NCBI GenBank assembly: GCA_937921735.1
Contig: CAKZTQ010000018.1
Span: 1-47,815, forward strand
Length of the DNA stretch: 47,815 nucleotides
DNA from: an uncultured archaeon
Lineage (GTDB): Archaea; Hadarchaeota; Hadarchaeia; Hadarchaeales; Hadarchaeaceae
Direction: 5' to 3'
In this document: one piece after another, positions 13,370 through 46,660 of the stretch
Layout of the letters: each line of letters begins with the position of its first letter
How positions within the stretch are numbered: position 1 is the first letter of the stretch
Notes under the pieces: model-generated
What the model was told of the DNA's origin: nothing
The model's input: the letters and a program-made list of their open reading frames with translations, nothing else
Database searches by the model: none
Made by a program: the position numbers and the translations under genes

Positions 13370-14643
13370 GCGGGGGCTTGGGATTGACGAACGATTGGAC
13401 GGCGGGATTTCTTCGCGTGAGGACCCTAGAGGAAGCAAAGCGTTTGTTGGAGGAACACTGGCGTCCCAAGCCCAGCGTGGCCGAGGTACCCCTCGAGAGG
13501 GCAGGGGGGCGAATACTTGCGGAGGACGTGGTCTCGAGGGTGGACCTCCCCCCCTTCGACCGCGCGGCCGTCGACGGGTACGCGGTTCGGGCGGCGGACA
13601 CGTTCGGCGCGGACGAGGAAACACCCATCGAGCTCCTTTGCGTGGGGCGCATACGAGCCGGTGATTGGCCGAAGCTGAGGGTGGGCAGGGGGAGGTGCGC
13701 TGAGATCGCGACGGGCGCCCCCATGCCTAGGGGGGCCGACGCGGTGGTGATGGTGGAACACGCTATCGCGGAAAAAAATGCCGTGAGGGTCTACCGCGCG
13801 GTCGCCCCGGGCGAGAACGTGGTGCAGCGAGCGTCCGAGGTCAAGCGCGGCGAGGTGGTCCTACCCGCGGGAAGGAGGCTGACCCCACAGCTCATCGGGA
13901 CCCTAGCTGCGGTCGGCGTAGGGAGGGTCAAGGTCTTCGAGCGGCCTCGGGTAGCGGTCATCTCCAGCGGCGCCGAGCTCACGAGGCCTGGCGGTAGGCT
14001 TGGACGTGGGAAGGTTTACGACATCAACGGGCCTGCGATATGCGAGGCCGTTAGAACCTGCGGCTGCGAACCGGTGTACCTCGGCATCGTGCGCGACGAG
14101 CCAGCGCGGGTGAGGTCCGCGATCGAGAAGGGCCTCGCTTCCTGCGAGGTGGTCATCATCTCCGGTGGCTCGTCAGCGGGCAGGGGGGACCTGGTGCCCA
14201 ACGTGGTGAGTGACATGGGGGAGCCTGGACTGTTAGTACATGGGCTCGCGATGAAGCCAGGAAAGCCGACCTTCGTGGCGGTGGTGAGCGGCAAGCCCGT
14301 ATTCGGGCTTCCGGGCTACCCGGTGTCCGCGTTCATGGTGTTTGACCAGCTCGTGGCGCCTTACCTGAGGGAGTTAGCGGGAGATCGGCAGGTCAAGCGG
14401 GAAAGGGCTGTGGCGAGGCTGAGCAGGAGGATATTATCGGCGAAGGGGAGGCGGGAGCTGGTGCCGGTTAAGCTACTTCGCCGAGACGGAGAGCTTTTAG
14501 CCGAGCCGCTCCTAAAGGGCTCTGGGGCGATCACGTCGCTTTCGATGGCGGACGGCTACATCGAGGTGCCGTTGGGGCGGGAGATGGTCGAGGAGGGGGA
14601 AATCGTCGAAGTCGTGATCTTTGGGGGCGCGGACGTTGCTTAG
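13357..14643 (+). CDS. moeA: Molybdopterin metal insertase MoeA (paralog 2)
   Basis: Same core motifs, plus SSGAEL, YDING, SGGSSAG..D, KPGKPT, GLPGYP, KGSGAITSL. Confidence 0.95.
   Translation: MADVGGGLGLTNDWTAGFLRVRTLEEAKRLLEEHWRPKPSVAEVPLERAGGRILAEDVVSRVDLPPFDRAAVDGYAVRAADTFGADEETPIELLCVGRIRAGDWPKLRVGRGRCAEIATGAPMPRGADAVVMVEHAIAEKNAVRVYRAVAPGENVVQRASEVKRGEVVLPAGRRLTPQLIGTLAAVGVGRVKVFERPRVAVISSGAELTRPGGRLGRGKVYDINGPAICEAVRTCGCEPVYLGIVRDEPARVRSAIEKGLASCEVVIISGGSSAGRGDLVPNVVSDMGEPGLLVHGLAMKPGKPTFVAVVSGKPVFGLPGYPVSAFMVFDQLVAPYLRELAGDRQVKRERAVARLSRRILSAKGRRELVPVKLLRRDGELLAEPLLKGSGAITSLSMADGYIEVPLGREMVEEGEIVEVVIFGGADVA
13519..13604 (+). repeat. 86-bp near-identical direct repeat, copy 2
   Basis: Matches 12254-12339 at 85/86 positions. 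Confidence 0.9.
13708..13760 (+). repeat. 53-bp identical direct repeat, copy 2
   Basis: Matches 12443-12495 exactly. Confidence 0.9.
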
Positions 14644-32786: not shown

Positions 32787-33875
32787 TCAGAACCGCATTG
32801 CCCTCGTGGGGCAAACCGAGACGCAGAGTCCGCAGCCATAACATTTACCTTGGTCGACCCTAGCGATCTTTCCCACCACGCGGACGGCGTTATAGATGCA
32901 ATGTTTCTCGCAGAGCCCACACCCGGTACACTTTGTCGCCAAAACTTCGGGTGGCTTAGCCCACGTGCGTAAGGGTTGCTCAGGCAAGTGCCTCAGGGCT
33001 ATACCCCGAAAGTCCTCGATGGACTCATAGCCCTTGATGCGCATGAACTTGGCGATCTCGTCGGCGATCAACCCGTAGATCTGCGGACCGCGGACGATCG
33101 CGGCCGTACAAACCTGCACGGCGCTTGCACCAGCCATGATGAACTCGATGGCATCGCGGCCATCGCTGATGCCTCCGACGCCGATCACGGGGAGGCGCAC
33201 GGCACGGCAGATGTCGGCGACGCAGCGAAGGGCCAAGGGTTTGATCGCGGGGCCAGAGAGCCACCCATAGCCCTTAGGTCCCCCCATCCACGGCATGGCA
33301 TTCTCTATATCTATCGCCAAGCAGGGACCGAGCGTATTTATCGCCACTAGGCCATCGGCACCCGCCTGCTCAGCGGCCCTAGCGAACTCGGTTATATCTA
33401 ACACGTTTGGGCTCAATTTGACGAACACCGGGATAGTCACAGTTTCCTTCGCGGCCCTGATAGCCTCTACCATTGGCGTCGGGTCGTGTCCCAAGTAGTG
33501 CGTAGAGAGCTCGAGGGCATCGACGCCGGCCTTTTCGACCCTCGGAGCCAACTCCCTGATCTCCTCGGGCTTGTACCCAATGCTCGCGATCAAGGGTAGC
33601 CCGGTCTTCTTGGCCTTTGCATACTCGTACTGCAACCATCGCTCGACCGGCAAGTCCGACCAGAGCTCAGCGTTCAGCAAACCATCCCTGATCTTGGCCA
33701 TGCACGGACGTGGTACTTCTGCCGGCCTTACGCTTACCGTCTTCGCCACAAGCGCGCCAGCACCGTGCTTCGCCGCGGCGACCAAGGCGTCGCCGTCCCT
33801 GACGGTAGGTCCGGCCGCTGGCATGACGGGATTCCGAAGCTTCAGGCCACATATCTCGACCGCTAGACTTACCAC
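32787..33875 (-). CDS. Dihydropyrimidine dehydrogenase PreA-like / DHODH-fold FMN enzyme with C-terminal 2x[4Fe-4S] domain
   Basis: NPVMPAAGP, KT, VKLSPN, AINT, GWLSGPAIKP, GVGGI, AGASAVQV, CTGCGLC...CYGCGLCVSVCP. Confidence 0.85.
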   Translation of the reverse strand: MVSLAVEICGLKLRNPVMPAAGPTVRDGDALVAAAKHGAGALVAKTVSVRPAEVPRPCMAKIRDGLLNAELWSDLPVERWLQYEYAKAKKTGLPLIASIGYKPEEIRELAPRVEKAGVDALELSTHYLGHDPTPMVEAIRAAKETVTIPVFVKLSPNVLDITEFARAAEQAGADGLVAINTLGPCLAIDIENAMPWMGGPKGYGWLSGPAIKPLALRCVADICRAVRLPVIGVGGISDGRDAIEFIMAGASAVQVCTAAIVRGPQIYGLIADEIAKFMRIKGYESIEDFRGIALRHLPEQPLRTWAKPPEVLATKCTGCGLCEKHCIYNAVRVVGKIARVDQGKCYGCGLCVSVCPTRAMRF

Positions 33876-35216
33876 CTAGCTACCCCCCATCGCCCCGAGC
33901 TTCTGCCAAAGCCTTTCCGCTGACCTCCGCGCGATCCGGATGACTTCTTCCTCATCGAGCGTCAGCAACTTGCGCTCGCGCATCACCACGTTGCCCCCCA
34001 CGATCACCGTCTCGACGTCGTCCCCGTCTATGGTATTGACCAGGTGCCCTATCACGCTCTCCGGCCTAACTGGCGTCGGCGCCGTCGACGGGTCTATGAT
34101 GATGATGTCCGCTAACTTACCGGTCTCGAGGGAGCCGAGCTCGCTCTCGAGCCCGTAGAGCTCGGCCCCACGTATGGTCGCCATCTCCAAAACTTCCGTG
34201 GGCGAGATTACTCTAGGGTCACGGAGCATGGCCTTGTGGAGCAGAAAGGCCGCGCGGATATTCTCGAACCCATCGAATATGTAACCATCGTTGCCCAAGC
34301 CCACCGGGATGCCCATCGCCAACATTTTCACCACCGGTGCCACCCCAACCGCGTTCAACATGTTGCTCATCGGATTATGCGCCACCTTTGCGCCAGCGCG
34401 TTTGATCAATGCCAACTCATCGTCGTTCACGTGCACGCAGTGAGCTAGCACCACGTCGGGCCCAAGTAGTCCGGCATCGCTCAAGCGCTCGATCGTGCGC
34501 TTGCCGAATCGCTCGTAGTTGTGATACACGTCCACGAGCCCCTCAGACGTATGGATAGTGATGGGTGCTTTGTAACGGCTCGCGAGCTCCCTGACGTAGT
34601 GGAGGAGTTCATCGGAAACTGTAAACGAAGCGTGTATGCTAAACATCCCTCGAACGCGGGCTCCTTTCTTCACCTTCTTGATAAAGCGCTCGTTCTCCCG
34701 CACTCCGCGCGCGCCCTCGGCATGCGTACGCCTCTCGGTAGCTTCGAAGGCGATTATCCCCCGCATGCCCGATTGCTCCACCGCAGCCGCGATGCGATCG
34801 AGCACGCCAGCTATCGCATTTGGGCCGGAGAAGGTATCCGCGAAGAGGGTTGTGCCCGTCTTTATGAATTCCATGCAGGAAACCAAGGCGCTTGCATACG
34901 CGTCCTCGCGCGTCATGGCCTCGTCCATCGGCCACCAGATTCTAGTGAGGATTTGAGAGAAATCCGTCGGCGGTTCGATCTTTAGCGGCGCCCCCCTCAA
35001 AAGCATGCCGTAGAGATGAGTATGGGAGCATATAAGGCCCGGCATGACGATTTTATGTTTGGCATCGATCGTCTCGGCCGGTTTTTCTCCCGGCTTAATG
35101 CCGCGCCCAATTTCTACGATGCGGCCATCCTCGATGGAAATGGAACCATCGGAGATGATTCGGCGCTCCTTATCCATCGTGACTATCAAACCATTTTTTA
35201 TGAACAGGTCAACCAA
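33876..35216 (-). CDS. Metal-dependent amidohydrolase, SsnA/MtaD-like
   Basis: PGLICSHTHLY, HTSEG, AHCVH, HNP.SN, GNDG, G.LADII. Start re-assigned to TTG 35216 after a GAGGGGGTGG RBS. Confidence 0.88.
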   Translation of the reverse strand: MVDLFIKNGLIVTMDKERRIISDGSISIEDGRIVEIGRGIKPGEKPAETIDAKHKIVMPGLICSHTHLYGMLLRGAPLKIEPPTDFSQILTRIWWPMDEAMTREDAYASALVSCMEFIKTGTTLFADTFSGPNAIAGVLDRIAAAVEQSGMRGIIAFEATERRTHAEGARGVRENERFIKKVKKGARVRGMFSIHASFTVSDELLHYVRELASRYKAPITIHTSEGLVDVYHNYERFGKRTIERLSDAGLLGPDVVLAHCVHVNDDELALIKRAGAKVAHNPMSNMLNAVGVAPVVKMLAMGIPVGLGNDGYIFDGFENIRAAFLLHKAMLRDPRVISPTEVLEMATIRGAELYGLESELGSLETGKLADIIIIDPSTAPTPVRPESVIGHLVNTIDGDDVETVIVGGNVVMRERKLLTLDEEEVIRIARRSAERLWQKLGAMGGS

Positions 35217-35253
35217 CTTCCCACCCCCTCGTAAGGACCAAATGCGGCGATGC

Positions 35254-35307
35254 ATTTAAAAGTTTGGCAAGCGATATCTTCGCAAGCATCTTGACATGTT
35301 TTATAAA
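35254..35307. promoter_or_regulatory. Divergent promoter between the ssnA-like gene and the histone gene
   Basis: Minus-strand CCAAACTTTTAAAT (35254-35267) and palindromic TTTATAAA (35300-35307). Confidence 0.55.
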
Positions 35308-35338
35308 CCATACCACCGATACGGGCGTGAGGGGAAAT

Positions 35339-35551
35339 ATGCCGGAATTCCCGTTGGCTGTTATGGATAGGCTCATCCGCAAGGTAGGAAAGGTTCGCGT
35401 CTCGCGAGGTGCTGCTTTGGAGCTAAGCGCCGTCTTGGAAGCATATGCCACCGATGTAGCTAAAGAAGCGATTAAGTTAGCTGAACATCGAGGGGCCAAG
35501 ACCGTAACTGACATCGACATCAGGGCGGCCGCATCCAGGATAAGAACATAA
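35339..35551 (+). CDS. Archaeal histone (HMf-like)
   Basis: MPEFPLA.MDRLIRK.G..RVS..A...L...LE.YA..VAKEA.KLAEH.G.KTV...DI; 70 aa from ATG 35339. Confidence 0.93.
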   Translation: MPEFPLAVMDRLIRKVGKVRVSRGAALELSAVLEAYATDVAKEAIKLAEHRGAKTVTDIDIRAAASRIRT

Positions 35552-35576
35552 GATATCCTGTGGCCGGGGGTGCCTT

Positions 35577-36911
35577 TTGGCAGACCTCATAATACGGAAC
35601 GCTAGGCTCGTCCTGCCGGAGGGTATCATCCAAGGTGAACTCGCGATCGATGATGGTCTGATCGCCGAGATCTCCAGAGTTAGGTTGCCCAAACGTGCGG
35701 CCGAAATAAACGCTAACGGCAAGCTGGTGATGCCGGGGGTTATAGACGTACATGCCCACATCTACGATCCTCGCTATTTAAAGCGCGAGGACTTTCGCAA
35801 CGGCACCGCCGCTGCGGCCGCTGGAGGGGTGACGAGCGTCATCGTGATGCCGCTAGATACCCCTATGGTGATGGTGGAGGAGCTGCAGAAAGTTATCGAG
35901 GTCGGACAAAAGCATAGCCTGATAGATTTTTCTTTACACGCAGGAAATTTCACCGCCGACGTCCCCGAGCACCTGTGTGCTGCGGCTGGCATTGGGATTA
36001 AGTCGTTCAAGATGTTTACCTGCGCACCGTACCGCGTTAACGAAACAACGTTGGAGAAGTTGATGTCGACCATCAAAAATATAGGTGGCATCGCATTCGT
36101 ACACGCCGAGGACGACAAGATCATCAGCAAAAACACCAAACGCCTGCTTAAAGAGGGGCGGAGAGACCCCCTAGCCCATGTCGAATCTCGTCCGAACGAG
36201 GCGGAGGAAAAAGCTATAAAAAAAATGATCGAGCTCGTCAAGAAAACTGAATGCAACCTGCATTTAGCCCATGTAACAGCCCGTCAGGGTGTTGAACTCG
36301 TGAATAAGGCTAAGTCCAAGCATGTGCGGCTGACGGCCGAAACCTGTCCACACTATCTGATCTTCACCAAGGAGGATATGGAAAAACTTGGACCTTACCT
36401 AAAGGTGAATCCAGCCCTAAAGAGTAGCGAGGACAGGGCCGCGCTATGGGATGGTCTAAGTAATGGAATTATCGACATCGTCGCATCCGATCATGCGCCC
36501 GGTACGCGGGCGGAGAAGGAGGTTGGCTGGAAAGATATTTGGGCGGCTCAAACAGGCGTCCCGGGCATAGAAACCATGCTGCCGCTGATGCTCGGCGAGG
36601 GGTTCGCGCGCGGCAGATTAACGCTCGAAAGGCTTGTCGATGCGCTTTGCACGCGGCCCGCCAAGATCTTTGGCCTTTACCCTAGGAAGGGCATCATCCG
36701 CGAGGGCTCGGATGCCGATTTGGTGATCGTCGATCTAAAGAAGGAGGTCACCATAAGGGCCGAGAAGTTGCACTACAAAGTCGGTTGGACGCCATACGAG
36801 GGGATGAAGATCAAAGGAGCGCCGGTGATGACCATATCTAGAGGCATCGTGATAGCTGAGGATGGCGAGGTACAGGCAAAACCCGGCCGGGGGCTCTTTT
36901 TAAGCCGTTAG
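35577..36911 (+). CDS. Cyclic amidohydrolase (allantoinase/dihydropyrimidinase/dihydroorotase family)
   Basis: PGVIDVHAH, AAAGGVT, FKMF (carbamylated Lys), HAED, AHV, ETCPHYL, SDHAP, G.DADLV. Confidence 0.88.
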   Translation: MADLIIRNARLVLPEGIIQGELAIDDGLIAEISRVRLPKRAAEINANGKLVMPGVIDVHAHIYDPRYLKREDFRNGTAAAAAGGVTSVIVMPLDTPMVMVEELQKVIEVGQKHSLIDFSLHAGNFTADVPEHLCAAAGIGIKSFKMFTCAPYRVNETTLEKLMSTIKNIGGIAFVHAEDDKIISKNTKRLLKEGRRDPLAHVESRPNEAEEKAIKKMIELVKKTECNLHLAHVTARQGVELVNKAKSKHVRLTAETCPHYLIFTKEDMEKLGPYLKVNPALKSSEDRAALWDGLSNGIIDIVASDHAPGTRAEKEVGWKDIWAAQTGVPGIETMLPLMLGEGFARGRLTLERLVDALCTRPAKIFGLYPRKGIIREGSDADLVIVDLKKEVTIRAEKLHYKVGWTPYEGMKIKGAPVMTISRGIVIAEDGEVQAKPGRGLFLSR

Positions 36912-36958
36912 GAAATACGTTGCGATCATTTATCCGGATGCTTAAAAGGTGCCTTGGG

Positions 36959-38383
36959 TCAAGCGAAGAATGTTCGTCTTCGGACATCGCGCAAGCCGTT
37001 GAGGATAACTCGCCTGTCGCCGCTGGTCATGTTTCGCTCTGCTATAAGTTTTCCATACCAGCGAAGCGCTCGTAGAGCTTTGGCACCCCTTTCTGGCAGA
37101 TCGTAAACTGGAATACCGATATCTCGAAGAACATCGCGAACCGCTACGTACCAATCTCCGCCGATAGCTACGTTCACGACGGGCTTTTCCTCCACGCTTT
37201 TTGCGACGTCCGCAAGGAGCCTCATTTCCTCGGGCTCCAGCGGGCAGGAGTCGAACGCGGTGACCACCATTAAACCGTTGACCTGTGGATCCTCCAATAC
37301 CCGCCCCAAGACGAACCCGTAACAATTCGCCCCAGCGTTGGGGGTCAGGTTTATCGGGTTATCGGGGCAGACATCTGGATATCGTCTTTTTATGCTCTTG
37401 ATCACTCCTTCGGACAACCTCGCCAACTCGAAACCCTCGCGGCGGACGGCCTCAGCCGCCAGCATCGCTGGGCCCTCCGCACTGCCAACGATCGCGATGC
37501 TGTCGCTTGCCAAGGGGGGTTGTTTAGCAAGCGCTTCTGCCATGTCGAAGAATTCTTGTATATTCCCGGCCAAAACCGCCCCAGCCTGCTTCAGCGCTGC
37601 GCTGAAGATCCTTCCTCCCCAAATTGAAGGCCTCGCAAGCGTCGACCTCGTCGCGTCGCACCCGAGCGCCACCACTGGCTTTTGCTTTGAGGCCTCACGT
37701 AGGGCCTGTAAAAAACGCCTTCCATCGACGCTCGTCCTCTCCGCGTATACGCAAATGACGCGGGAGCCCTTCTCTTCCGCCAGGTAGCGCACTGTTTCGA
37801 CCGCACCAACGTCTACGCTGCCCTCGGTTACGGCGAACTTGCCCACGCCGATACCGTGCAAATGGGCCCAATCCACCATCGCGGGGCCAACGCCTTGGCC
37901 ACTGACGATAAATGAAGTGGCGCCCCGTCTCGGTATCGCCCGAAGCTTGGGCATCAAGCAAAGTCCATTGGAGGTGTTGACCACACCCACGATACCTGGT
38001 CCGAGCACCCTGATACCTCTTTTAACTGCTGTGCGCGAGAGCTGTTCAGCCTGGTCCTCGGTAAACCCGCTGGAGATCAAGGCCATTGCCTTTACGGCGC
38101 TTCTGTTCAGGAGCTTCCGCACGCAGTTGAGCGCTTGCTTCGGCTGCAGAACTAGGACAGCTAGATCGAGTTTCCTCGGCGCGGCTCTGAGATCTCTCGA
38201 AGTACCGTCTAGCTGGCCGCTGAGGTCCACCACATGCATTTTACCCTTGTAAAATCTTCGCATGGCTTGGACTATGGAGCGAAAAAACGTCGCGTGAACG
38301 TCGGCTTTTCGGACCTCCGAGCAACCTATTAAAATGACGGACTTCGGCTCGAAAATCGCTCTTATGCCATTTTCGGCCATCAA
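36959..38383 (-). CDS. ADP-forming acyl-CoA synthetase alpha-subunit homolog, degenerate
   Basis: FEPKSV..IG.S, SSGF.E, RVLGP..VG, KPVV, KQAG, NPI.L, IPVY..PE. The catalytic SHTG motif is not present. Confidence 0.75.
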   Translation of the reverse strand: MMAENGIRAIFEPKSVILIGCSEVRKADVHATFFRSIVQAMRRFYKGKMHVVDLSGQLDGTSRDLRAAPRKLDLAVLVLQPKQALNCVRKLLNRSAVKAMALISSGFTEDQAEQLSRTAVKRGIRVLGPGIVGVVNTSNGLCLMPKLRAIPRRGATSFIVSGQGVGPAMVDWAHLHGIGVGKFAVTEGSVDVGAVETVRYLAEEKGSRVICVYAERTSVDGRRFLQALREASKQKPVVALGCDATRSTLARPSIWGGRIFSAALKQAGAVLAGNIQEFFDMAEALAKQPPLASDSIAIVGSAEGPAMLAAEAVRREGFELARLSEGVIKSIKRRYPDVCPDNPINLTPNAGANCYGFVLGRVLEDPQVNGLMVVTAFDSCPLEPEEMRLLADVAKSVEEKPVVNVAIGGDWYVAVRDVLRDIGIPVYDLPERGAKALRALRWYGKLIAERNMTSGDRRVILNGLRDVRRRTFFA

Positions 38384-39102
38384 CTGCCCTCCTTGAGTAT
38401 CATCCTAGCGTCGATGGCGATGGCTCCCTTTCCGCGATCGAACGCGAATACTGGATTTAAATCCAGCTCGGCTATTTCTGAAAATTCGCAAGCGAGATCC
38501 CCAACCTTCTGCAGCATGTCGGCGATGGCGTCCAAATCAACCTGCGGCTCGCCCCGCAAGCCGGCCAACACGGGATAGCCCTTGATTTCTCGTATCATCT
38601 CCTTCGCGTCCTCCGCGGTAAGGGGGGCAAGCCTGAAGCTTACGTCCTTCAAAACCTCTACCCATATGCCGCCGAGCCCGAACATCACCGTCGCGCCGAA
38701 GGATGGGTCCTGCATGGCGCCTACTATTACCTCCTTTCCTTGCGGAAGGTACTCCTGCACTGTGACGCCGGCGATGTTCGCGTTAGGCCTGTAGGCTCGA
38801 GCGTTGGCAAGTATCTCATCGAACGCCTGTCTGACCTCAAGCTCGGAGCTCAGTCCCACCCTCACGCCCCCCGCGTCGCTCTTGTGGACGATGTCGGGCG
38901 ATGCTATCTTCATGACCACTGGATATCGGAGCTCCCTCGCGATCCTCACCGCCTCGGAGGCATCTCTCGCCAGCTCGGAGCGAGCGACCGGTATTCCCCA
39001 AGCAGAGAGCACCTGCTTTGCCTCGTGCTCCAATAGCACTCGCCGACCCTGCCTTCTGGTCGACGCCAAAATTTCCGCGACCTTCTTCCGATCGGTCGCC
39101 AT
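38380..39102 (-). CDS. ADP-forming acyl-CoA synthetase beta subunit (ATP-grasp)
   Basis: LLEHEAK..L..WGIP, YPVVMKIASPDIVHKSDAGGV, D..FG..VMFGLGG..VE..KD, ELDLNP, DAR. Confidence 0.93.
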   Translation of the reverse strand: MATDRKKVAEILASTRRQGRRVLLEHEAKQVLSAWGIPVARSELARDASEAVRIARELRYPVVMKIASPDIVHKSDAGGVRVGLSSELEVRQAFDEILANARAYRPNANIAGVTVQEYLPQGKEVIVGAMQDPSFGATVMFGLGGIWVEVLKDVSFRLAPLTAEDAKEMIREIKGYPVLAGLRGEPQVDLDAIADMLQKVGDLACEFSEIAELDLNPVFAFDRGKGAIAIDARMILKEGS

Positions 39103-39376
39103 ATAATCACGGGTTATTTACATTGGTCATTTTTATTATTTAAATTTTCCAAGCCCTTGCTACAAGTTTTGGGGATTTTTCTTTCTCCTTTTTAGATTTT
39201 CTGCATTTAAAAAGACGATTAATAAGTTTTAGGAAAGATAAAGATCTGTTTTTGGTTTAACACACCTATTCTTCCCCAACTAATCGGCCTACGTCTTTTG
39301 CCGAATTTTAAAGATGAAGCCCCCCTCAAAACTTAAAAATCGTGCGGGGCTATGGTTAATAGCCCGTGGTGATACG
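39103..39376. promoter_or_regulatory. Long AT-rich divergent regulatory region
   Basis: About 270 bp of visibly AT-rich non-coding DNA with several TATA-like boxes (TTTAAA, AAAACTTAAAAAT) between the acd beta gene and carbamate kinase. Confidence 0.6.
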
Positions 39377-40333
39377 GTGGCCAAGACAAAGACTAGAGTC
39401 GTAGTGGCGCTGGGTGGGAATGCGATCCTCCAGAGGGGGGAAAGGGGAACATACGAAGAACAGCTCGCGAACGTGAGAAAGACGGCGGAGCAAATAGGTA
39501 AGATGATCTTGAGCGGAAAGTATCAAGTCGTCATAACCCACGGTAACGGTCCGCAGGTAGGTGCGATACTCCTCCAGAACGACGCCGGACAGAAGTATGG
39601 TATACCGGCGATGCCAATGGACGTCTGCGGCGCCGAGAGCCAAGGGCTGATAGGGTATATGATACAGCAGTGCCTCCGCGAGGTTTTCGTCAAGGCCGGA
39701 AGACCGGATATACCCGTTGCCACGGTGATAACCCAAGTTATCGTCGACAAAAACGACCCCGCCTTCCAAAACCCCACCAAACCGGTCGGCCCGTTCTACA
39801 CCGAAGAGGAGGCGAAAAGGTTGGCCAAGGAGAAGGGGTGGGTCGTGGTAGACGATGCCGGCCGCGGCTGGAGGCGCGTGGTGCCATCGCCCGACCCAAA
39901 GGACATCGCCGAGAAGGAGGCTATAAGATGTCTCCTCGACGCGCACGTCGTCCCCATAGCCTCGGGGGGTGGTGGAATACCCGTGATCGAGGAGGACGGG
40001 AAATTGAAGGGTGTGGAGGCGGTGATAGACAAGGACTTGGCGGGCGAGAGGCTGGCCGAAGCGGTGGACGCGGACGTGCTGCTGATATTGACCGACGTAG
40101 ACGGGGTGGCGATAAACTACAGGAAGCCCAATGAGCGGTGGCTGAGGAGGATGACGGTGCAGGAGGCGAAGCGATACTTGGAGGAGGGCCAGTTCGCGGC
40201 GGGCAGCATGGAGCCGAAGGTGAGGGCCGCCGTGAGGTTCATCGAGTGGGGAGGGAAACGGGCGATCATCGCATCGCTGGACCGGGCCCTAGAGGCCCTC
40301 GAGGGAGAGGCGGGCACGGAAATAGTAAGATGA
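39377..40333 (+). CDS. arcC: Carbamate kinase
   Basis: [61 protein letters not shown]. Start re-assigned to GTG 39377. Confidence 0.97.
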
Positions 40334-40401
40334 TCCATCAAAGAAACCTTTTTTCGGAATCGATTTTTAGATGCGAACCTTAAATTTCCTTTTGGGATGA
40401 G

Positions 40402-41478
40402 ATGGCCAAAATCCCTCGAGAACTTGAAGGACTACTCGAACTTCCCACCGTCAGACCCGCTCTGCTTTGGGAAAAGGTCCAAGATAGCGAGGTAAAGTGT
40501 AGTCTTTGCGAGAGGCGATGCCAGATAAAGGAGGGATCGACCGGTTTTTGTGGGACGAGGGTCAACATCGGCGGTCAACTTTACACGATGGTCTACGGCG
40601 ATATATCCTCCCTCTCCGCCAACCCAGCGGAGAAAAAGCCCTTTTACCATTTTTATCCGGGCAAGCTTTTCCTGACGGCGGGCACGTATGGATGCACGTT
40701 TCGATGCCCATGGTGTCAAAACGCGTCCATAAGTCAAGTTTCTCCAGATCCACGCGAGGCCAACTACATAAGCCCGGAGCACTTCGTCAAGATCTCCTTA
40801 GAAGAGGGGTGCGTCGGGACCAGCCTGAGCTTCAACGAGCCCACCTTGCTCTTCGAATACGCGCTTGACCTGTTCCCCCTAGCGCACGAGAAGGGCCTAG
40901 TGAATACCTTCGTCTCGAACGGTTACATGACGCTCGAAGCGCTCCGGATGTTGCGCGACGCTGGCTTGGACGCCATCAACATCGATGTCAAAGGAGATGC
41001 CCAAGCGGTTCGGAAATATTGCGCGGCGAGGGTCGAGCCCGTTTGGCGAAACGTGCGGGAGGCCAAGCGCCTTGGGCTGCATGTGGAGGTGGTCAACCTC
41101 GTGATACCTGGGGTCAACGATCGCGAGGAGCAATTTAGGGAACTGGCGAGGCGCCACCTCCAAGAGGCCGGGGATGAAACGCCCCTGCACTTCACGGCCT
41201 ATTATCCCGCTTACAGGTTCGATGCCCCGCCTACCCCCGTCGCGACCCTCGAGCGAGCCCACGACGTGGCGGTGGCGGAGGGCTTAAAGTTCGTCTACGT
41301 GGGCAATGTGCCCGGACACCGCTACGAGAACACCTATTGCCCGAACTGTGGCAGACTGCTCATCGGTCGCTACGGGCTCGAGCTCATAAAGGTGGACCTC
41401 GAGGACCATCGATGCCCGAGCTGCGGGCGGGAGATCTCCATCGTGACGAAAAGTGGGACGAGGAGGCGGGCGAGGTGA
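40402..41478 (+). CDS. amrS: AmmeMemoRadiSam-type (PFL-AE-like) radical SAM enzyme
   Basis: CSLC..RC...G.CG.R.N, P.EKKP.YHF.PG, GCTFRCPWCQN, FNEP, YVGNVPG..YENTYCPNCG. Confidence 0.9.
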   Translation: MAKIPRELEGLLELPTVRPALLWEKVQDSEVKCSLCERRCQIKEGSTGFCGTRVNIGGQLYTMVYGDISSLSANPAEKKPFYHFYPGKLFLTAGTYGCTFRCPWCQNASISQVSPDPREANYISPEHFVKISLEEGCVGTSLSFNEPTLLFEYALDLFPLAHEKGLVNTFVSNGYMTLEALRMLRDAGLDAINIDVKGDAQAVRKYCAARVEPVWRNVREAKRLGLHVEVVNLVIPGVNDREEQFRELARRHLQEAGDETPLHFTAYYPAYRFDAPPTPVATLERAHDVAVAEGLKFVYVGNVPGHRYENTYCPNCGRLLIGRYGLELIKVDLEDHRCPSCGREISIVTKSGTRRRAR

Positions 41479-42254
41479 CGATCGTCGTAGTCGTCAGGGG
41501 AGACCGGCCCGAGACGGTGGTGCCGCTCGCCTTGAAGGAACTGGGCATCGAGGTCAAAGGGAGAAAGGTGGTGATAAAGCCAAACCTCATCACCAACCGC
41601 CCCTACCCGGTGATCACTCCGCCCGAAACCGTGGGGGCCCTCCTCGATTATTTCAGGGAGGGCAACGAGCTCATCGTGGCCGAGGGCTCTGGCTTCGGCG
41701 ATACTAGGGAGATATTCAGGGATCAGGGTTACGAGGCGCTCGCCGAGCGTTATGGGGCGAGGCTCGTCGACCTCAATCGGGATAAATTTGAGTTACTCGA
41801 GCTACCGGAAGTCAGGGTGCTGAGGAGGTTCGAGCTGCCATCGACCCTCAAGGGTGCTTACCTCATCTCGGCCGCGGTCCTAAAGCGGCACTCGATAACG
41901 AAGGTGACGCTCTCGGTCAAGAACATGCTCGGCGCCACCATCGGGAGGGACAAGGGAAGGTTCCACAGGCTGGGCATAGACGAGAGCATCGTCGACATCT
42001 GCCTCTACCGAAAACCGGACCTCGCGGTCATCGACGGCAGGCTGGGCTTGAGCTCCGAGCTCGGAGGGGAAGCTAGGAAATTTGGGGTGATGATCTTCTC
42101 CGAGGACCCGGTCGCCGCGGATGCTGTAGGGTCGAAAATTCTTGGGGTCGAGCCCTCAAGCGTGCGACACCTGAAGTTGGCGCAGGAAGCGGGACTTGGG
42201 GTATGCGATCTCAAGAGGATCGAGGTGCGCGAGCTAAGCGCGGGCAGCACTTAA
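41475..42254 (+). CDS. DUF362 family protein
   Basis: VVIKPN, VAEG, LK.H....TLSVKN.LG, K..FH, IDG, DPVAAD. Start re-assigned to GTG 41475, overlapping the amrS stop. Confidence 0.85.
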   Translation: MTIVVVVRGDRPETVVPLALKELGIEVKGRKVVIKPNLITNRPYPVITPPETVGALLDYFREGNELIVAEGSGFGDTREIFRDQGYEALAERYGARLVDLNRDKFELLELPEVRVLRRFELPSTLKGAYLISAAVLKRHSITKVTLSVKNMLGATIGRDKGRFHRLGIDESIVDICLYRKPDLAVIDGRLGLSSELGGEARKFGVMIFSEDPVAADAVGSKILGVEPSSVRHLKLAQEAGLGVCDLKRIEVRELSAGST

Positions 42255-43012
42255 CGAACGGGCTTGACCTCGCTGGAAATCGCGTCGTAGCCCTCTAGGA
42301 CCCTTTCAAAACTTATCCTTTTGCCCCCTACGATCTTGAGCTCAACATCTAGCGAGCCCCGCTCCACCCTTATGATGTTGTAGGAGTTGGCGAAGAACCC
42401 CCTCAGCCTCCTGCAGGAAACGCTGCCGGCGTGCACTATCGGCAAGCCATCGACGCTCAGCCTCCAAGGCCTGTGCTTGTGGCCGCAGAGTACCAAGTTG
42501 GCCTTGCCGGCTATAAGCGTGCGCAGGGCGTCTCCAGCGTCGACGACTATGTTGGGCCTAGTGCCGGTGTCGGGGATGGGTACCAAGTGATGGTGGAGGG
42601 CGACTATCTTGAACTTGTCCTCGTGCTTCCTCAAGACCTCATCGAACCATACTAGCTGGCGGTAGCCAACCTCACCCGTGTCCCTATCCGGCCTCGCGGT
42701 TCGAAGGTGGGCGATGAGTACCTCGTCGAGCACCAACATCTCAGGGCGAGGGAAGAAGTGATCCCAGAGCAAGAAGCCGGTGTGCTCGTAGTCGTGGTTG
42801 CCGCTGCCCACTAAAACCCTGCTACACCTGAGCTTTCCGATGTACCTCGCCGCTAGCTTGTACTCATCGAAGAGACCGGAGTTTGTGACATCGCCGGTGA
42901 TTATGACCACGTCCGGCTTTAGCGCGTTTATCTCCTTGATGGCCGTAGCTAGCATCTTCGGGGAGAACGTCTCCGCGCCGCAGTGCAGGTCAGATAAGTG
43001 AACGAGAAGCAT
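42251..43012 (-). CDS. Calcineurin-like metallophosphoesterase (CpdA/Icc-like)
   Basis: SDLH, TGDVT, GNHD, HHH, GHKH. Start re-assigned to ATG 43012. Confidence 0.9.
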   Translation of the reverse strand: MLLVHLSDLHCGAETFSPKMLATAIKEINALKPDVVIITGDVTNSGLFDEYKLAARYIGKLRCSRVLVGSGNHDYEHTGFLLWDHFFPRPEMLVLDEVLIAHLRTARPDRDTGEVGYRQLVWFDEVLRKHEDKFKIVALHHHLVPIPDTGTRPNIVVDAGDALRTLIAGKANLVLCGHKHRPWRLSVDGLPIVHAGSVSCRRLRGFFANSYNIIRVERGSLDVELKIVGGKRISFERVLEGYDAISSEVKPVR

Positions 43013-43019
43013 GTTCCCC

Positions 43020-44042
43020 CTATAGCTCGACTTCCTTGCACATGGTGAGGGCGAGCACCGCCATCTTGGCGAAGAAGTTGTCGTCGGCCTGCTCGTAGAT
43101 GACCGAGTTGGGCCCATCCATCACCTCGTCCGTCGCCTCCTCGCCCCTCATCACTGGCAGCACGTGGGTGACGATCGCCGGCCTGCCCATGAGGTCGTCG
43201 ACGTGGTGCTGCTCCAGCCTCCAATCTCGATATCTGTTGTAGATGGCGACCTCCCTGTCGACGCCAAACGCCGTTGCACCCACCCTCAGAAATTCCGCCG
43301 TCGCCCAATTCCTCGGAAAGACCACGTTTGCGCCTCGGAGCCCCTCCTCGAAGTCGTTGCTCACCTCGAAGCTCCCGCCGCTCTCCTCGGCGTTCCTTTT
43401 GGCGGCCTCGATTATCTTGGGGTCTATCTCGAAGCCCGGCGGGTGAACCAACGTCACATCCATGCCGAAGCGGGTAGCGATGAGCACCTCCTCTTGGATG
43501 CTGCATCTCCCGCGTGGCTTGCTTGAGTACGCCCAGGTCACGGCGTACTTCTTTCCCCTCACATCGCCGAGCTTGGCTTGGATCGTCATCATGTCCCCTA
43601 TCGCTTGCGTTGGGTGATAGGTGCAACAGGCCATGTTGATCACCGGCACCTTTGCAACCCTCGCGAATTCCTCGACCACCCTTCTCCCCGCGCCATAGAC
43701 GAAGTCTATAGCCTTGTCCAATATCCTTACTCCTATCCCGTCCGCGTAAGAGTCGTACATCTTCGCTGCGTCCTTCACCGCCTCCTCCATCCTCATCGTC
43801 GAGACATCGATGAAGGCCGGGTGTCCGCCTAGCATGGCGGTCGCGGCCTCGAAGGCGCCGCGCGTGCGCGTCGAGGGCGCGTAGAACACCATGAAGAAGT
43901 TCTTCCGATCGAGGAGCCTGGGTGGACGGCCCCCTCCCCTGACGATCGCCCTCAGCTTCCTGGCCAGGTCTATGGTTGCTTGGATCTCGTCGATGCTCCA
44001 ATCTTGAGTAGTTATCAGGTCGCGACCGTAGAGCTCAGCCAT
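43020..44042 (-). CDS. Carbamoyltransferase of the YgeW / N-acetylornithine carbamoyltransferase ('knotted') group
   Basis: STRTR, HPTQ, TWAYSSKP, FPRNW, HVLPV.RG.E, QA.D. Start re-assigned to ATG 44042. Confidence 0.85.
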   Translation of the reverse strand: MAELYGRDLITTQDWSIDEIQATIDLARKLRAIVRGGGRPPRLLDRKNFFMVFYAPSTRTRGAFEAATAMLGGHPAFIDVSTMRMEEAVKDAAKMYDSYADGIGVRILDKAIDFVYGAGRRVVEEFARVAKVPVINMACCTYHPTQAIGDMMTIQAKLGDVRGKKYAVTWAYSSKPRGRCSIQEEVLIATRFGMDVTLVHPPGFEIDPKIIEAAKRNAEESGGSFEVSNDFEEGLRGANVVFPRNWATAEFLRVGATAFGVDREVAIYNRYRDWRLEQHHVDDLMGRPAIVTHVLPVMRGEEATDEVMDGPNSVIYEQADDNFFAKMAVLALTMCKEVEL

Positions 44043-44099
44043 CCGGACTCCCCAAAGTAATTTGCGCACGTGTTTTTAACTTTGTGGGGGCTGTAAACC

Positions 44100-44230
44100 C
44101 AACCGACCCCATTTTTCCCGAGCAAGGCATCATCTCTCCTGCCCACGTCGAAGTTTATGTTATCATTGGCAAGGACCCCAAGAAAGCGCTTAACGATGGC
44201 CCCCACCTACGACTATTTCACCGGACCCAT
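44100..44230 (-). pseudogene. Relic of the 5' end of a sugar/nucleoside ABC transporter ATPase gene
   Basis: IVKRFLGVLANDNINFDVGRRDDALLGKNGVG resembles the CUT2-family start ITKRFPGVxANDxVxFxV..GEIHALLGENGAGKST. In-frame TAG codons lie upstream and the Walker A is broken. Confidence 0.65.
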
Positions 44231-44249
44231 GCCCCGCATAACATCGATC

Positions 44250-46199
44250 CTAAGGACGTTTCTTAAATGCGACCCTTCCGTACTTCGCTAGGTCCTCAGC
44301 GACATCCACCAGCCCCAGCCCCTCCAACGTCTCTCTATACTGTAGACCCGTCTCTATGTCCCAGCCGCGTTCGGCATAATACTCGTCCAGCATGGGTTTT
44401 AGATCCACCACCATCCCCTTCGCCGGCCCATCGGGCATCGGCTCCTTGAGGAAGCGCTCCGGCAAAGTGTCGTCCTTGCGGTCGAGGCCCAGCCTGGCGT
44501 TGAAGGCTCGCTTCAAGTTAACGATCCGCTCGGCCGCCGCCCTGACTTCCTCTACCCTCGAGAACTCCCGGATACCGGTGACGGCCGGCAAGATCCTCGC
44601 GTAGTCGTCGAAGTAAAAGGCGGGAGGCCACATCGTACCATACTTACAGGTGATGAGGGAGTCGACGACAGCGTAGAGGTCCTCGACGTCCTTGATCAAC
44701 ATGCCCTTGTACTTCGTCGAGAGCCTGTCACCTATATCCTTAGCCTTCTCCTCACCATATCTCTTGGCTATCGTCTCCCTGTAATCTAGCTCGTCGAGCG
44801 ACGAAAGCGCCCTGAGGTGCGCCCCGCCTATGACCGAGATCGCATGGGTTAGGCCTACCGATTGATGTGCCCTGCCGTCTTGTCCCGAGACCTCGAGCCC
44901 CTTCACGTGGATCGCCCAGCGCTCCGAGCCCTTGCCAATGCGCCGCGCTGCCTCCCGAACCCCCTCCGCCAAGACATCGCCGATCCCCTCGCGCGAGGCT
45001 ACCATCTCGACTAGCCTGACCATGGCATCGCCGTCGCCCCATCGCAGGGGCATGCCTAACTCTTGCTCCGTCAGGACACCCCGCTCGAAGCATTCCATCG
45101 CGAAGCTCACCGTGCCCCCGCAGCTTATCGTGTCCATGCCGTGCAAGTTGCAGAGTAGGTTGGCCCTCATTATCGCGGGAAAGTCGCTGACCAAGCAATT
45201 GGAGCCCAAGGCGACGATGGTCTCGTACTCAGGCCCCTCGCTGAGGGTGCCGGCGTACGGGCCGGAGCGCACGTGGCTCACCTTCTTGCACTGGATGCGG
45301 CAGTTCATGCAGGAGCGGCGGTGGACGATGAACTCCCGCTCGAACCTATCGGGCCCTATGTCATCGGCATGCTCGAAGACCCCCGTGGAGTGTCCCTTCG
45401 TCGGCAGCCTACCTATCTCGTTCTCCCACGCGACCAGCCCCGGCGTGCCGAAGCGGTAAAGAGCGTCGTGGGAGGCCTTCCCCCACTCGCCTCGCGTGTA
45501 GCGTTCGTGGGCCTCCTCCGCCAGCTCCCACGTGCGGTCGAAGTCGGCAACCTCGATGTCCCCGCTCCCCCGCACGGCCACCGCCTTAAGGCGCTTGCTG
45601 CCCATTACCGCTCCCACGCCCGTCCTGCCGGCGGCGCGCGCGCGATCGTTTATGATGCAGGCGAACTTCACGAGGCGCTCGCCGGCCTTGCCTATGCACG
45701 CGACCCTAACGCTCGGATCGCCGAACTCCTCCTCGATCATGTCCGTGGTCTCGGCGGTGGTCCTCCCCCAGAGCCCCTCCGCACTTCTGAGCTCAGCCCT
45801 GCCTTCGTCTATTGCCAAGTAGACCGGCTTTTCAGACCTCCCCTGGATCACCACGAGGTCGTAGCCAGCATACTTCAGCTCTGGGCCGAAGTAGCCGCCG
45901 GAGTGCGACTCACCCCAGATGCCGGTCAGCGGGGACCTCGTCACCACGCAGTATCTCCCGGACGGTGGGTAAACCGTGCCGGTGATGGGCCCTGTAGCGA
46001 AGATCAACAGGTTCTCGGGCGATAGCGGCTCGACCTCCGGCGTCACCTCGTCGTAGAGGATGCGCGCGGCCATCCCGCTGCCGCCGATGTAGTACCTCGC
46101 CCACTCCTCGCGGAGGGGGAGTTCGACGATCTTGCCGCGGGTGAGGTCGACGCGCAAGTACTTGCCGGTGTAGCCCTTGTAGGCGAAGACCACCTCCAT
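44250..46199 (-). CDS. Tungsten-containing aldehyde:ferredoxin oxidoreductase family catalytic subunit
   Basis: GYTGK.LRVDL, SPLTG...ES.SGG, AAGR.G.GAVMGSK.LKA, C..C.I.C, EGPEYET, DTIS, D.LPERF, YY..RGW. Start re-assigned to ATG 46199. Confidence 0.95.
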   Translation of the reverse strand: MEVVFAYKGYTGKYLRVDLTRGKIVELPLREEWARYYIGGSGMAARILYDEVTPEVEPLSPENLLIFATGPITGTVYPPSGRYCVVTRSPLTGIWGESHSGGYFGPELKYAGYDLVVIQGRSEKPVYLAIDEGRAELRSAEGLWGRTTAETTDMIEEEFGDPSVRVACIGKAGERLVKFACIINDRARAAGRTGVGAVMGSKRLKAVAVRGSGDIEVADFDRTWELAEEAHERYTRGEWGKASHDALYRFGTPGLVAWENEIGRLPTKGHSTGVFEHADDIGPDRFEREFIVHRRSCMNCRIQCKKVSHVRSGPYAGTLSEGPEYETIVALGSNCLVSDFPAIMRANLLCNLHGMDTISCGGTVSFAMECFERGVLTEQELGMPLRWGDGDAMVRLVEMVASREGIGDVLAEGVREAARRIGKGSERWAIHVKGLEVSGQDGRAHQSVGLTHAISVIGGAHLRALSSLDELDYRETIAKRYGEEKAKDIGDRLSTKYKGMLIKDVEDLYAVVDSLITCKYGTMWPPAFYFDDYARILPAVTGIREFSRVEEVRAAAERIVNLKRAFNARLGLDRKDDTLPERFLKEPMPDGPAKGMVVDLKPMLDEYYAERGWDIETGLQYRETLEGLGLVDVAEDLAKYGRVAFKKRP

Positions 46200-46660
46200 C
46201 ACCTCAAGAGGGACCTCGGGCGCACAGCTTGGGCGATCGCCAGTCGCTTCTCGGCCGCCACTTGTCCTGGCTCGATCAGCCTGAGCGCCTCGGGCATGCA
46301 CAGCCTCACGCAGGCCGGGTCGCCGCCACAAAGGTCGCACTTGGCCGCCTTGCCCTCGATGATGGAGATCGCTCCGAAGGGGCAGGCCTCAACGCAGAGG
46401 GAGCAACCTATGCAGCGCGCCACGTCGACCTCGACCACCCCGGCTTTCGTCCGCCGGATGGCGCCGCTTGGACAGGCCCTCATACAGGGCGGGTCAGCAC
46501 ACTGCCGACAAGTGAGCGCGACGTCGATGGCCGGCTCCCGCCTTACCACGCGGATGCGGGATTTTTTTGGATTGAAAACCTTCTCGTGAACCCCCGAGCA
46601 GACCAGCTCGCATGTCCTGCAGCCCGTGCACTTTTCAAGGTCACAGAACACGTAGGGCAC
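46199..46660 (-). CDS. 4Fe-4S dicluster (polyferredoxin) subunit of the AOR
   Basis: CTGCRTCELVC, CRQC..PPC..ACP, CIGCSLCVEACP, KCDLC.GDPACV..C; overlaps the AOR start. Confidence 0.93.
   Translation of the reverse strand: MPYVFCDLEKCTGCRTCELVCSGVHEKVFNPKKSRIRVVRREPAIDVALTCRQCADPPCMRACPSGAIRRTKAGVVEVDVARCIGCSLCVEACPFGAISIIEGKAAKCDLCGGDPACVRLCMPEALRLIEPGQVAAEKRLAIAQAVRPRSLLR

Follow-up and report, generated by a model that had tools for sequence, protein, structure and literature searches.

A candidate archaeal variant of the reductive purine pathway in a Hadarchaeales genome

What does an archaeon do with a ring reductase, two cyclic amidohydrolases, a carbamoyltransferase, a carbamate kinase and a tungsten-type oxidoreductase, all encoded within about 14 kb? 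The genes in question lie at 32.8–46.7 kb of a 47,815-nucleotide stretch (hereafter the window; GenBank CAKZTQ010000018.1), which is contig C18 of the 83%-complete, 1.06-Mb genome of a hot-spring archaeon whose closest public relatives are Hadarchaeales metagenome-assembled genomes (MAGs). An initial annotation had listed eight items at 32787–46660 and grouped them as one system for anaerobic nucleobase degradation. Pfam and NCBIfam scans against curated cut-offs, and tblastn for the relic of a transporter gene, located all eight, as well as three intervening genes that the list had overlooked, coding for a radical-SAM enzyme, a DUF362 protein and a metallophosphoesterase (Table 1). We conclude that this is a real, conserved catabolic gene set; on genomic evidence, it probably encodes the reductive purine (urate/2,8-dioxopurine-type) pathway in an archaeal, ferredoxin-type variant that conserves energy via carbamoyl phosphate and acyl-CoA. 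Below, C-numbers denote contigs of this genome, G-numbers genomes (G001 being of the same genus) and L-numbers loci.

The reductive purine pathway was elucidated as recently as 2025, in gut bacteria alone. In the accessible text of Li et al. 2025 (PMC12507026) and Liu et al. 2025 (bioRxiv 10.1101/2025.04.24.650524), urate is converted to 2,8-dioxopurine by XdhD/DOPDH, which is followed by reduction by YgfK (UacX in C. difficile) coupled to SsnA, and then by HyuA; YgeW and carbamate kinase give ATP, and YgeY and YgeX lead to pyruvate. The same accessible part of Li et al. (PMC12507026) describes the YgfK/UacX reductase as working only when coupled to SsnA, and SsnA as a marker of the purine route. 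The window encodes the same enzyme types, as had been proposed: E. coli SsnA, YgeW and YqeA each have their best match in the genome in a window gene. The words archaea and tungsten have 0 occurrences in the text of either pathway paper (PMC12507026; bioRxiv 10.1101/2025.04.24.650524), the supplements of which might hold archaeal rows, and we found no archaeal or tungsten-linked version of the pathway in the literature.

The reductase, SsnA and hydantoinase genes

The reductase scores under every PyrD/PreA cut-off (240 versus 269, 231 versus 270, and 220 versus 335 bits), and a 53-sequence alignment shows that it has lost the 12-residue loop with the S-C-P cysteine of E. coli PreA, which we take to be the catalytic cysteine of PyrD/PreA-type enzymes. 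The loop is also missing in 45 other aligned sequences and is kept in seven of PreA type, including the genome's own PreA at C45. The protein has a PF01180 FMN domain and Fe-S clusters, no FAD or NAD(P)H domain, and SsnA as its neighbor; we call it UacX-like on the strength of this architecture, described for C. difficile UacX in the accessible text of PMC12507026.

The adjacent amidohydrolase scores best with SsnA models, below their cut-offs (NF005540, 413 versus 444 bits; TIGR03314, 397.5 versus 455.5 bits). It is the best match in the genome to E. coli SsnA (31% identity, 204 bits; the next scores 132), and it keeps the HxH, H, H and D ligands. A 21-row tree joins the window SsnA clade and E. 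coli SsnA at 99/96 (10 rows), with four paralogues from this genome (C11, C16, C21a and C21b) and E. coli GuaD falling outside. The divergently transcribed hydantoinase is less specifically assigned, scoring 361 bits with the D-hydantoinase model TIGR02033 (cut-off 393), 361 as an allantoinase and 362 as a dihydroorotase, all below cut-offs, and passing only the broad TIGR00857 model. It shares 31% identity with E. coli HyuA and keeps all of the HxH, carbamylated-Lys, H, H and D positions, and E. coli HyuA matches three paralogues in the genome about equally.

Table 1. Coordinates of the features discussed, in window positions
Feature	Position	Strand	Basis or context
UacX-like ring reductase, 362 aa	32787-33875	-	DHO_dh 147 bits and two C-terminal 4Fe-4S motifs, CxxCxxCxxxC(P); no NAD/FAD module
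SsnA-like amidohydrolase, predicted ring-opening partner of the reductase	33876-35255	-	NF005540 best family
Hydantoinase/dihydropyrimidinase-type cyclic amidohydrolase (HyuA-like)	35577-36911	+	Divergent from SsnA gene
ADP-forming acyl-CoA synthetase alpha	36959-38380	-	Succ_CoA_lig and CoA_binding_2 domains
ADP-forming acyl-CoA synthetase beta (ATP-grasp)	38380-39102	-	ATP-grasp_5, 291 bits
Carbamate kinase	39314-40333	+	TIGR00746, 462 bits versus cut-off 358
Radical-SAM enzyme (AmmeMemoRadiSam-type)	40402-41478	+	NCBIfam/Pfam
DUF362 protein	41337-42254	+	Pfam/NCBIfam
Calcineurin-type metallophosphoesterase, last gene of AOR-carbamoyltransferase operon	42251-43012	-	Metallophos domain
Carbamoyltransferase, candidate ureido-acid phosphorolysis enzyme	43020-44069	-	OTCace_N and OTCace domains
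Relic of Bmp/PnrA-type nucleoside ABC-transporter ATPase gene, 33 codons	44102-44197	-	tblastn
AOR-family (tungsten-type) oxidoreductase, catalytic subunit	44250-46199	-	AFOR_N and AFOR_C domains
Polyferredoxin, four [4Fe-4S] motifs, AorA-like small subunit	46199-46660	-	Fer4 families
Coiled-coil protein, 188 aa	32126-32692	-	No clear family
Two tandem MoeA paralogues	12116-14643	+	Pterin metal-insertion enzymes

The core is conserved well beyond this genome. Among 81 SsnA loci (80 fetched with the SsnA protein, plus the window), a hydantoinase is present, divergent from SsnA, in 59 and a DHODH-family reductase lies within 10 kb in 45, made up of 33/35 in Hadarchaeota, 6/8 in Desulfurococcales, 2/4 in Nitrososphaeria, 2/4 in Asgard archaea, one in Hecatella, and the window itself. 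The reductase-SsnA-hydantoinase trio is conserved across Hadarchaeota, and the reductase-SsnA pair extends to Desulfurococcales, Nitrososphaeria and Asgard archaea.

Could the substrate instead be a pyrimidine or another monocyclic ureide (uracil, thymine or a 5-substituted hydantoin), with the carbamoyltransferase replacing beta-ureidopropionase and the oxidoreductase oxidizing the resulting semialdehyde? The initial annotation had offered pyrimidine reduction with phosphorolysis of the ureido acid as an alternative, and the window does resemble the reductive pyrimidine pathway (PreT/PreA or ferredoxin-dependent PydAc, then dihydropyrimidinase, then beta-ureidopropionase) in its reductase fold (PreA/PydA/DHODH), its Fe-S motifs and its cyclic amidohydrolase superfamily; the hydantoinase scores equally as a dihydropyrimidinase, a semialdehyde would be an ordinary substrate for the AOR in a redox-neutral route, and the Hadarchaeum loci L129 and L150 cluster a carbamoyltransferase with a hydantoinase, an AOR, a PreA-like reductase and an acyl-CoA synthetase. 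However, a monocycle needs one ring-opening amidohydrolase and two are conserved together here, with SsnA, the purine-route marker in the accessible text of PMC12507026, as an obligatory partner of the reductase. The window also departs from the pyrimidine pathway in that its reductase lacks the cysteine loop that PreA keeps and falls under the PreA cut-off, and in having a carbamoyltransferase in the hydrolase's place; a bona fide PreA (443 bits, cut-off 335) is encoded elsewhere in the genome, at C45, with its own hydantoinase, the context genes described below are purine-related, and the clusters have no conserved aminotransferase. With the purine-type context, the two amidohydrolases and the separate PreA weighing against it, we regard a pyrimidine substrate as decidedly improbable.

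The C45 locus (C45:40974-44052, L094) consists of a hydantoinase paralogue, an 87-aa open reading frame (ORF) and the PreA gene; no PreT was found in the genome, and we consider the hydantoinase-PreA pair a candidate separate pyrimidine module. In L129 and L150, the AOR belongs to another clade (41–43% identity), and an MtmB-like gene lies upstream. In many Hadarchaeota relatives (L014, L028, L079 and others), a second set of genes lies between the UacX gene and the coiled-coil gene, 1–5 kb downstream of UacX, and encodes a PreT-like Fer4_20/Pyr_redox_2 protein and a reductase of PreA type along with an SsnA paralogue nearer E. coli SsnA; this set is missing at this site in the window and in the same-genus MAG. 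Bathyarchaeia SsnA loci (e.g., L056) hold SsnA and a hydantoinase without a DHODH-type reductase, and their neighbors are a MobA/MocA-like transferase, a NUDIX-IF2B fusion (ribose-1,5-bisphosphate-isomerase-like), a major facilitator superfamily transporter, and a 127-aa protein, conserved but without family assignment.

Carbamoyl transfer, ATP formation and co-occurrence

The carbamoyltransferase had been described as YgeW-like, which holds in that a carbamoyltransferase is present and is the best match in the genome to E. coli YgeW (142 versus 85 bits for the next). It is not a member of the YgeW family, however: at 141 bits it is far from the cut-off of 453 (139–142 bits versus 453–500 for the models TIGR03316/NF005538, matching residues 7–262 only), it passes no NCBIfam cut-off, and it is nearer OTCase and AOTCase, below which the solved YgeW 3q98 ranks as a match. 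The OTCase model itself gives 187 bits versus a cut-off of 281. The carbamoyl-phosphate motifs STRTR and HPxQ are kept, and the SMG loop and the cysteine of HCLP are lost, which in alignment to 1pvv appear as NWATAEF for DVWASMG and HVLP for HCLP; these are presumably the ornithine-binding/substrate motifs of OTCase.

These properties also bear on whether the genes are simply the organism's biosynthetic PyrD, PyrC and ArgF/PyrB. This assembly has no PyrD or ATCase above cut-off, and the one model that the hydantoinase passes is a broad dihydroorotase model, as such an explanation would predict. However, four relatives that are 94–95% complete (G007, G009, G011 and G025) each have a separate PyrD above cut-off (330–347 bits) and a separate PyrC in addition to UacX and hydantoinase orthologues, in three of them within a few kb of an ATCase-like match; a true OTCase is encoded in an arginine cluster at C16 of this genome (457 bits versus cut-off 306); the window reductase carries Fe-S motifs and a deletion of the catalytic loop; and the carbamoyltransferase lacks the OTCase substrate motifs. 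The pyrD-pyrC-pyrB cluster is merely unassembled in this genome. Cut-off failures, the separate pyr cluster in relatives and the OTCase at C16 all distinguish the window genes from biosynthetic PyrD/PyrC/ArgF orthologues, and we hold a biosynthetic role to be extremely improbable.

Carbamate kinase is confidently identified (Table 1), is 52% identical to E. coli YqeA and is single-copy in the genome. Of the acyl-CoA synthetase subunits, alpha lies beside the hydantoinase in 28 further Hadarchaeota loci and beta is kept in 29 further; the two are found in 29–30 of the 81 SsnA loci, in Hadarchaeota only.

The 180-bp spacer between the AOR and carbamoyltransferase genes holds the relic of a nucleoside-type ATP-binding cassette (ABC) transporter noted at the outset, and this proved real. 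The match (21/33 identical, E 1e-5 against the window) is to residues 16–48 of the Bmp/PnrA-type ATPase of related MAGs at the same position; the Walker A of the relic is degenerate, and the same-genus MAG retains 66 codons of the ATPase at 79% identity. In L113 and L114, a double-ABC ATPase, a binding protein and a pair of permeases form an intact transporter, which, with adenine deaminase after it, lies between orthologous AOR and carbamoyltransferase genes. The relic records a deletion of ~7 kb. Pfam ABC_tran and Bmp have no match on this contig (0/34 and 0/2 of their genome matches); elsewhere in the genome, intact transporter homologues are present at C51 and C45, and an adenine deaminase at C32 (66%).

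In distant archaea, the gene families found dispersed across 14 kb of the window recur in clusters around SsnA, with carbamoyltransferase, carbamate kinase and AOR/polyferredoxin beside SsnA in other archaeal phyla (the window is left out of the carbamoyltransferase count in this clustering). A Desulfurococcales locus, L070, encodes a hydantoinase, adenine deaminase, a second SsnA, two carbamoyltransferases, carbamate kinase, SsnA, UacX and an M20 enzyme that passes the YgeY-family model (350 bits versus cut-off 321). SsnA has a second SsnA-family paralogue and a pair of carbamoyltransferases as neighbors in Asgard archaea, Nitrososphaeria and Hecatella, and in the first two of these, polyferredoxin-AOR-UacX operons are also found beside SsnA; often, these clusters include a threonine-synthase-like pyridoxal-phosphate (PLP) enzyme as well. 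G036, from another Hadarchaeal family, combines in L111 a ThrC-like enzyme, SsnA2, carbamate kinase, synthetase beta, hydantoinase, SsnA and UacX. In L104/L117, XdhA-like, YgfM-like, MocA-like and XdhC genes lie 3–9 kb from the polyferredoxin, AOR and carbamoyltransferase genes. Adenine deaminase, the nucleoside ABC transporter and Xdh maturation genes in related clusters point to purines rather than pyrimidines.

Co-occurrence was counted in 41 Hadarchaeales genomes, with orthologues defined at identities of at least 58% for SsnA, 45% for the carbamoyltransferase and 72% for the AOR; these genomes are kin, and the counts are hence not independent. SsnA is present in 24, the carbamoyltransferase in 16, carbamate kinase in 17, a PF02738 molybdenum hydroxylase in 18 and the AOR in six. 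Carbamate kinase is found in 14/16 carbamoyltransferase carriers versus 3/25 non-carriers, and PF02738 in 14/16 versus 4/25, which links the carbamoyltransferase to purine hydroxylases. SsnA is likewise present in 14/16 of the carbamoyltransferase carriers, with G036 adding one by synteny. All six AOR carriers have the carbamoyltransferase, and the five besides this genome all have PF02738.

Several observations weigh against a purine pathway of the bacterial kind. Within the SsnA clade, the window protein forms a sister group and is not nested with E. coli SsnA, which sits on a long branch, and a second Hadarchaeal SsnA, missing from this genome, is nearer E. coli SsnA and pairs with it in the tree; the window reductase-SsnA pair is a sister system, not a strict orthologue, of the bacterial one. 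The carbamoyltransferase is outside the YgeW family by NCBIfam score, and the reductase is present in 0/25 Bathyarchaeia SsnA loci. Ten SsnA carriers among the relatives have no carbamoyltransferase orthologue; one, G007 (94% complete), has SsnA, reductase and hydantoinase and lacks the carbamoyltransferase orthologue, carbamate kinase and PF02738, so that the core either can function with no ATP-yielding branch or has a different function. Carbamate kinase, in most relatives, lies beside an OTCase-like gene and not SsnA, unrelated genes separate the units in the window, and kinship among the genomes means that the co-occurrence counts overstate independence. Searches by tblastn with E. coli YgeX, YgeY, XdhA, XdhD and YgfK gave no match in the 83%-complete genome, and the only ThrC-like PLP enzyme in the genome passes threonine-synthase cut-offs and lies away from the cluster.

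The absence of YgeX, YgeY and Xdh, first noted for the window, extends to the 83%-complete assembly, where PF02738 also has 0 matches. The missing Xdh is probably an assembly gap, because the same-genus genome G001 has PF02738 (as fragments), as do 14/16 of the carbamoyltransferase carriers. G001 also carries a second carbamoyltransferase. A weak M20 match at C51 was rejected as YgeY (23.5 bits, below cut-off, and with no tblastn match to E. coli YgeY). The PALP enzyme of other archaeal SsnA clusters is a candidate YgeX equivalent and passes threonine-synthase cut-offs. At C15:10297-12046 (L098), a ThiS/MoaD-like gene adjoins that of a ThrC-like PLP enzyme, which is extended at its N terminus and shares 38% identity with the PLP enzyme in SsnA clusters of other archaea.

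Grouping the ~14 kb as one system was supported in that the same families cluster with SsnA elsewhere, but here they form two or three transcription units with unrelated genes between them, and no single operon. A second conserved operon (polyferredoxin, AOR, carbamoyltransferase and phosphoesterase) and carbamate kinase lie 4–11 kb from the core trio. Stop and start codons are in contact at three junctions, from SsnA to the reductase (whose GTG start directly follows the SsnA stop), from polyferredoxin to AOR (stop overlapping start) and from synthetase beta to alpha (the alpha ATG overlapping the beta stop), which in the sequence indicate translational coupling.

This arrangement raises the question of whether two or three independent units are neighbors by chance, with SsnA, UacX and hydantoinase (and perhaps the synthetase) degrading one heterocycle, polyferredoxin, AOR, carbamoyltransferase and phosphoesterase serving another ureide or amine route (e.g., oxalurate-, citrulline- or agmatine-like), and carbamate kinase serving whichever carbamoyltransferase is active. 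Such independence would fit the 30/35 Hadarchaeota SsnA loci that have no carbamoyltransferase, AOR or carbamate kinase within 10 kb, the adjacency of carbamate kinase and an OTCase-like gene in most relatives, the ten SsnA carriers lacking the carbamoyltransferase, and the radical-SAM, DUF362 and phosphoesterase genes between the window units; with eight AORs in 1.06 Mb, an AOR within 10 kb of any gene is also not rare. Chance is harder to reconcile with the single SsnA clusters of Desulfurococcales, Asgard archaea, Nitrososphaeria, Hecatella and G036, which hold the same families, with the orthology of the window AOR to the UacX-linked AORs of Asgard archaea and Nitrososphaeria, with the presence of SsnA in 14/16 carbamoyltransferase carriers and, by synteny, in G036, and with the carbamoyltransferase co-occurring with Xdh-family enzymes and adjoining adenine deaminase and a nucleoside transporter. 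We therefore find independent units unlikely, and prefer a single purine pathway encoded in several units.

The AOR and polyferredoxin

The AOR is closest among solved structures to the canonical AORs 9mqx, 1aor and 8c0z, and all 16 cysteines of its polyferredoxin are invariant in 17 orthologues. In a 23-row AOR tree, support of 100/100 unites the window AOR with its carbamoyltransferase-linked counterparts in G012 and G003, and these are next joined, at 95/93, by the UacX-linked AORs from the polyferredoxin-AOR-reductase operons of Asgard archaea and Nitrososphaeria; the seven other AORs of this genome fall outside that clade. Among 80 loci fetched with the window AOR, all 8/8 Hadarchaeota loci with at least 70% AOR identity have polyferredoxin and this carbamoyltransferase within 10 kb (six directly adjacent), and only 2/72 other AOR loci have a carbamoyltransferase. 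The ties to polyferredoxin, UacX and carbamoyltransferase loci argue for a pathway-specific role, and within the purine-pathway explanation, the AOR and polyferredoxin would be a lineage-restricted accessory.

The initial annotation had proposed a ferredoxin/tungsten-based variant. An archaeal, ferredoxin-type variant fits best, but replacement of molybdenum by tungsten does not stand here, as Xdh-family enzymes co-occur in relatives. For the same reason, we rejected the AOR as a stand-in for xanthine dehydrogenase in Hadarchaeales, since 5/5 other AOR-carrying genomes and 14/16 carbamoyltransferase carriers have PF02738.

Which step, then, might the AOR serve? Electron exchange with the Fe-S reductase, at low potential, is our leading, tentative suggestion. 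Oxidation of a pathway aldehyde or hemiaminal is a weaker possibility, direct action on a ring or acyl-urea carbon is about as doubtful, and so is a role that is none of these. We also speculate, as an unlikely specific case, that this AOR clade may have as its substrate not an ordinary aldehyde but a carbon at the aldehyde level within the nucleobase pathway (in a ring amidine, acyl-urea or hemiaminal) and be wired by polyferredoxin to the Fe-S clusters of UacX, so that oxidation would balance ring reduction with no external donor; if true, this would add a reaction class to those of the tungsten AOR family.

The accessible text of a 2025 review (PMC12096430) names Thr243, Glu313, Tyr427 and His448 as second-shell AOR residues. 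The window AOR keeps the equivalents of Thr243, Tyr312, Glu313 and His448 and has Gln for Tyr427 and Leu for Tyr452. The change of Tyr427 to Gln was rejected as a marker of a new substrate, being common to 26/108 sampled AORs, including paralogues unlinked to the pathway. Like AorAB(C) (Aromatoleum aromaticum 8c0z; P. furiosus AOR 1aor), the window proteins have AFOR domains and a four-cluster polyferredoxin coupled like AorA; unlike it, they have no AorC-like FAD subunit and are syntenic with nucleobase-catabolic genes. A 2026 classification of tungsten oxidoreductases (WOR; PMC13328260) distinguishes, in its accessible text, 92 clades of which only five have a defined physiological role, and in that text purine, pyrimidine, carbamoyl, amidohydrolase, dihydroorotate and nucleobase have 0 occurrences. 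The synteny described here places one AOR clade among many in a physiological setting that can be tested.

A candidate route and the surrounding genes

We infer the substrates, and the order of the steps, as follows. An oxopurine would be reduced by the UacX-like FMN/Fe-S protein, and the co-translated SsnA-like amidohydrolase would open the six-membered ring, pulling the unfavorable reduction. The hydantoinase-type enzyme would then open the five-membered ring to give a diureido acid, one ureido group of which would be phosphorolyzed by the carbamoyltransferase to carbamoyl phosphate, and carbamate kinase would convert this to ATP, CO2 and NH3. The C3 remainder may pass through pyruvate and acetyl-CoA to acetate, yielding a second ATP via the ADP-forming acyl-CoA synthetase. 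The AOR and polyferredoxin would most likely exchange low-potential electrons with the Fe-S reductase, or oxidize a pathway aldehyde or hemiaminal.

Compared with the C. difficile-type pathway (XdhD, UacX, SsnA, HyuA, YgeW or UacY, YqeA, YgeY and YgeX), the window is alike in having a PF01180-type FMN/Fe-S reductase without NAD/FAD adjoining SsnA, a hydantoinase-type second ring opener, and a carbamoyltransferase and carbamate kinase that can give ATP, and related archaeal clusters contain purine-salvage and Xdh-maturation genes. It differs in that its SsnA belongs to a sister clade, its carbamoyltransferase is of another subfamily, YgeX and YgeY were not found, and it has an added AOR/polyferredoxin pair and ADP-forming acyl-CoA synthetase; in many archaeal clusters, SsnA paralogues and carbamoyltransferases are each present in duplicate.

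Substrate-level phosphorylation by a carbamoyltransferase and carbamate kinase is also a feature of the anaerobic allantoin/oxalurate route, which uses oxamate carbamoyltransferase, and is likewise possible for the window pair; no allantoinase-specific or ureidoglycolate genes were identified. If the core of the purine pathway occurs in at least five lineages of archaea from the deep subsurface and hot springs, fermenting purines anaerobically would be a common means of subsisting on dead biomass where energy is scarce, and the archaeal form would combine electron input of the ferredoxin type with alternative carbamoyltransferases and at most two substrate-level phosphorylations.

The genome also contains a second paralogous cluster (C21:10635-26000, L093), with an energy-coupling factor-type ABC transporter, a Mer-like enzyme of the luciferase-like monooxygenase (LLM) class, two AORs, a hydantoinase paralogue, an arginase-family enzyme, and a 298-aa DHODH-like protein that lacks Fe-S motifs and lies between two SsnA-family amidohydrolases. 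We considered this LLM-class enzyme as the F420-type reductase proposed for Chloroflexota and found no support for this, as it passes a Mer model (282 bits versus cut-off 276).

Among the intervening genes, membership of the radical-SAM and DUF362 genes in the system is doubtful, with no functional link evident; the radical-SAM gene is convergent to the carbamoyltransferase gene in several relatives. The metallophosphoesterase gene is also 3′ of the carbamoyltransferase gene in G003 (L112) and in L118. The long ORFs of the AOR and phosphoesterase begin too early, and alignments place their starts at 46199 and ~43012; the likely phosphoesterase start is an internal Met, 7 nt past the carbamoyltransferase stop. 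Just downstream of UacX, the gene for the coiled-coil protein is conserved in five Hadarchaeota loci and in G036. Farther away in the window, the tandem MoeA paralogues follow a GC-richer (62–66%) histidine-biosynthesis stretch, and fit a genome with eight AOR-family genes.

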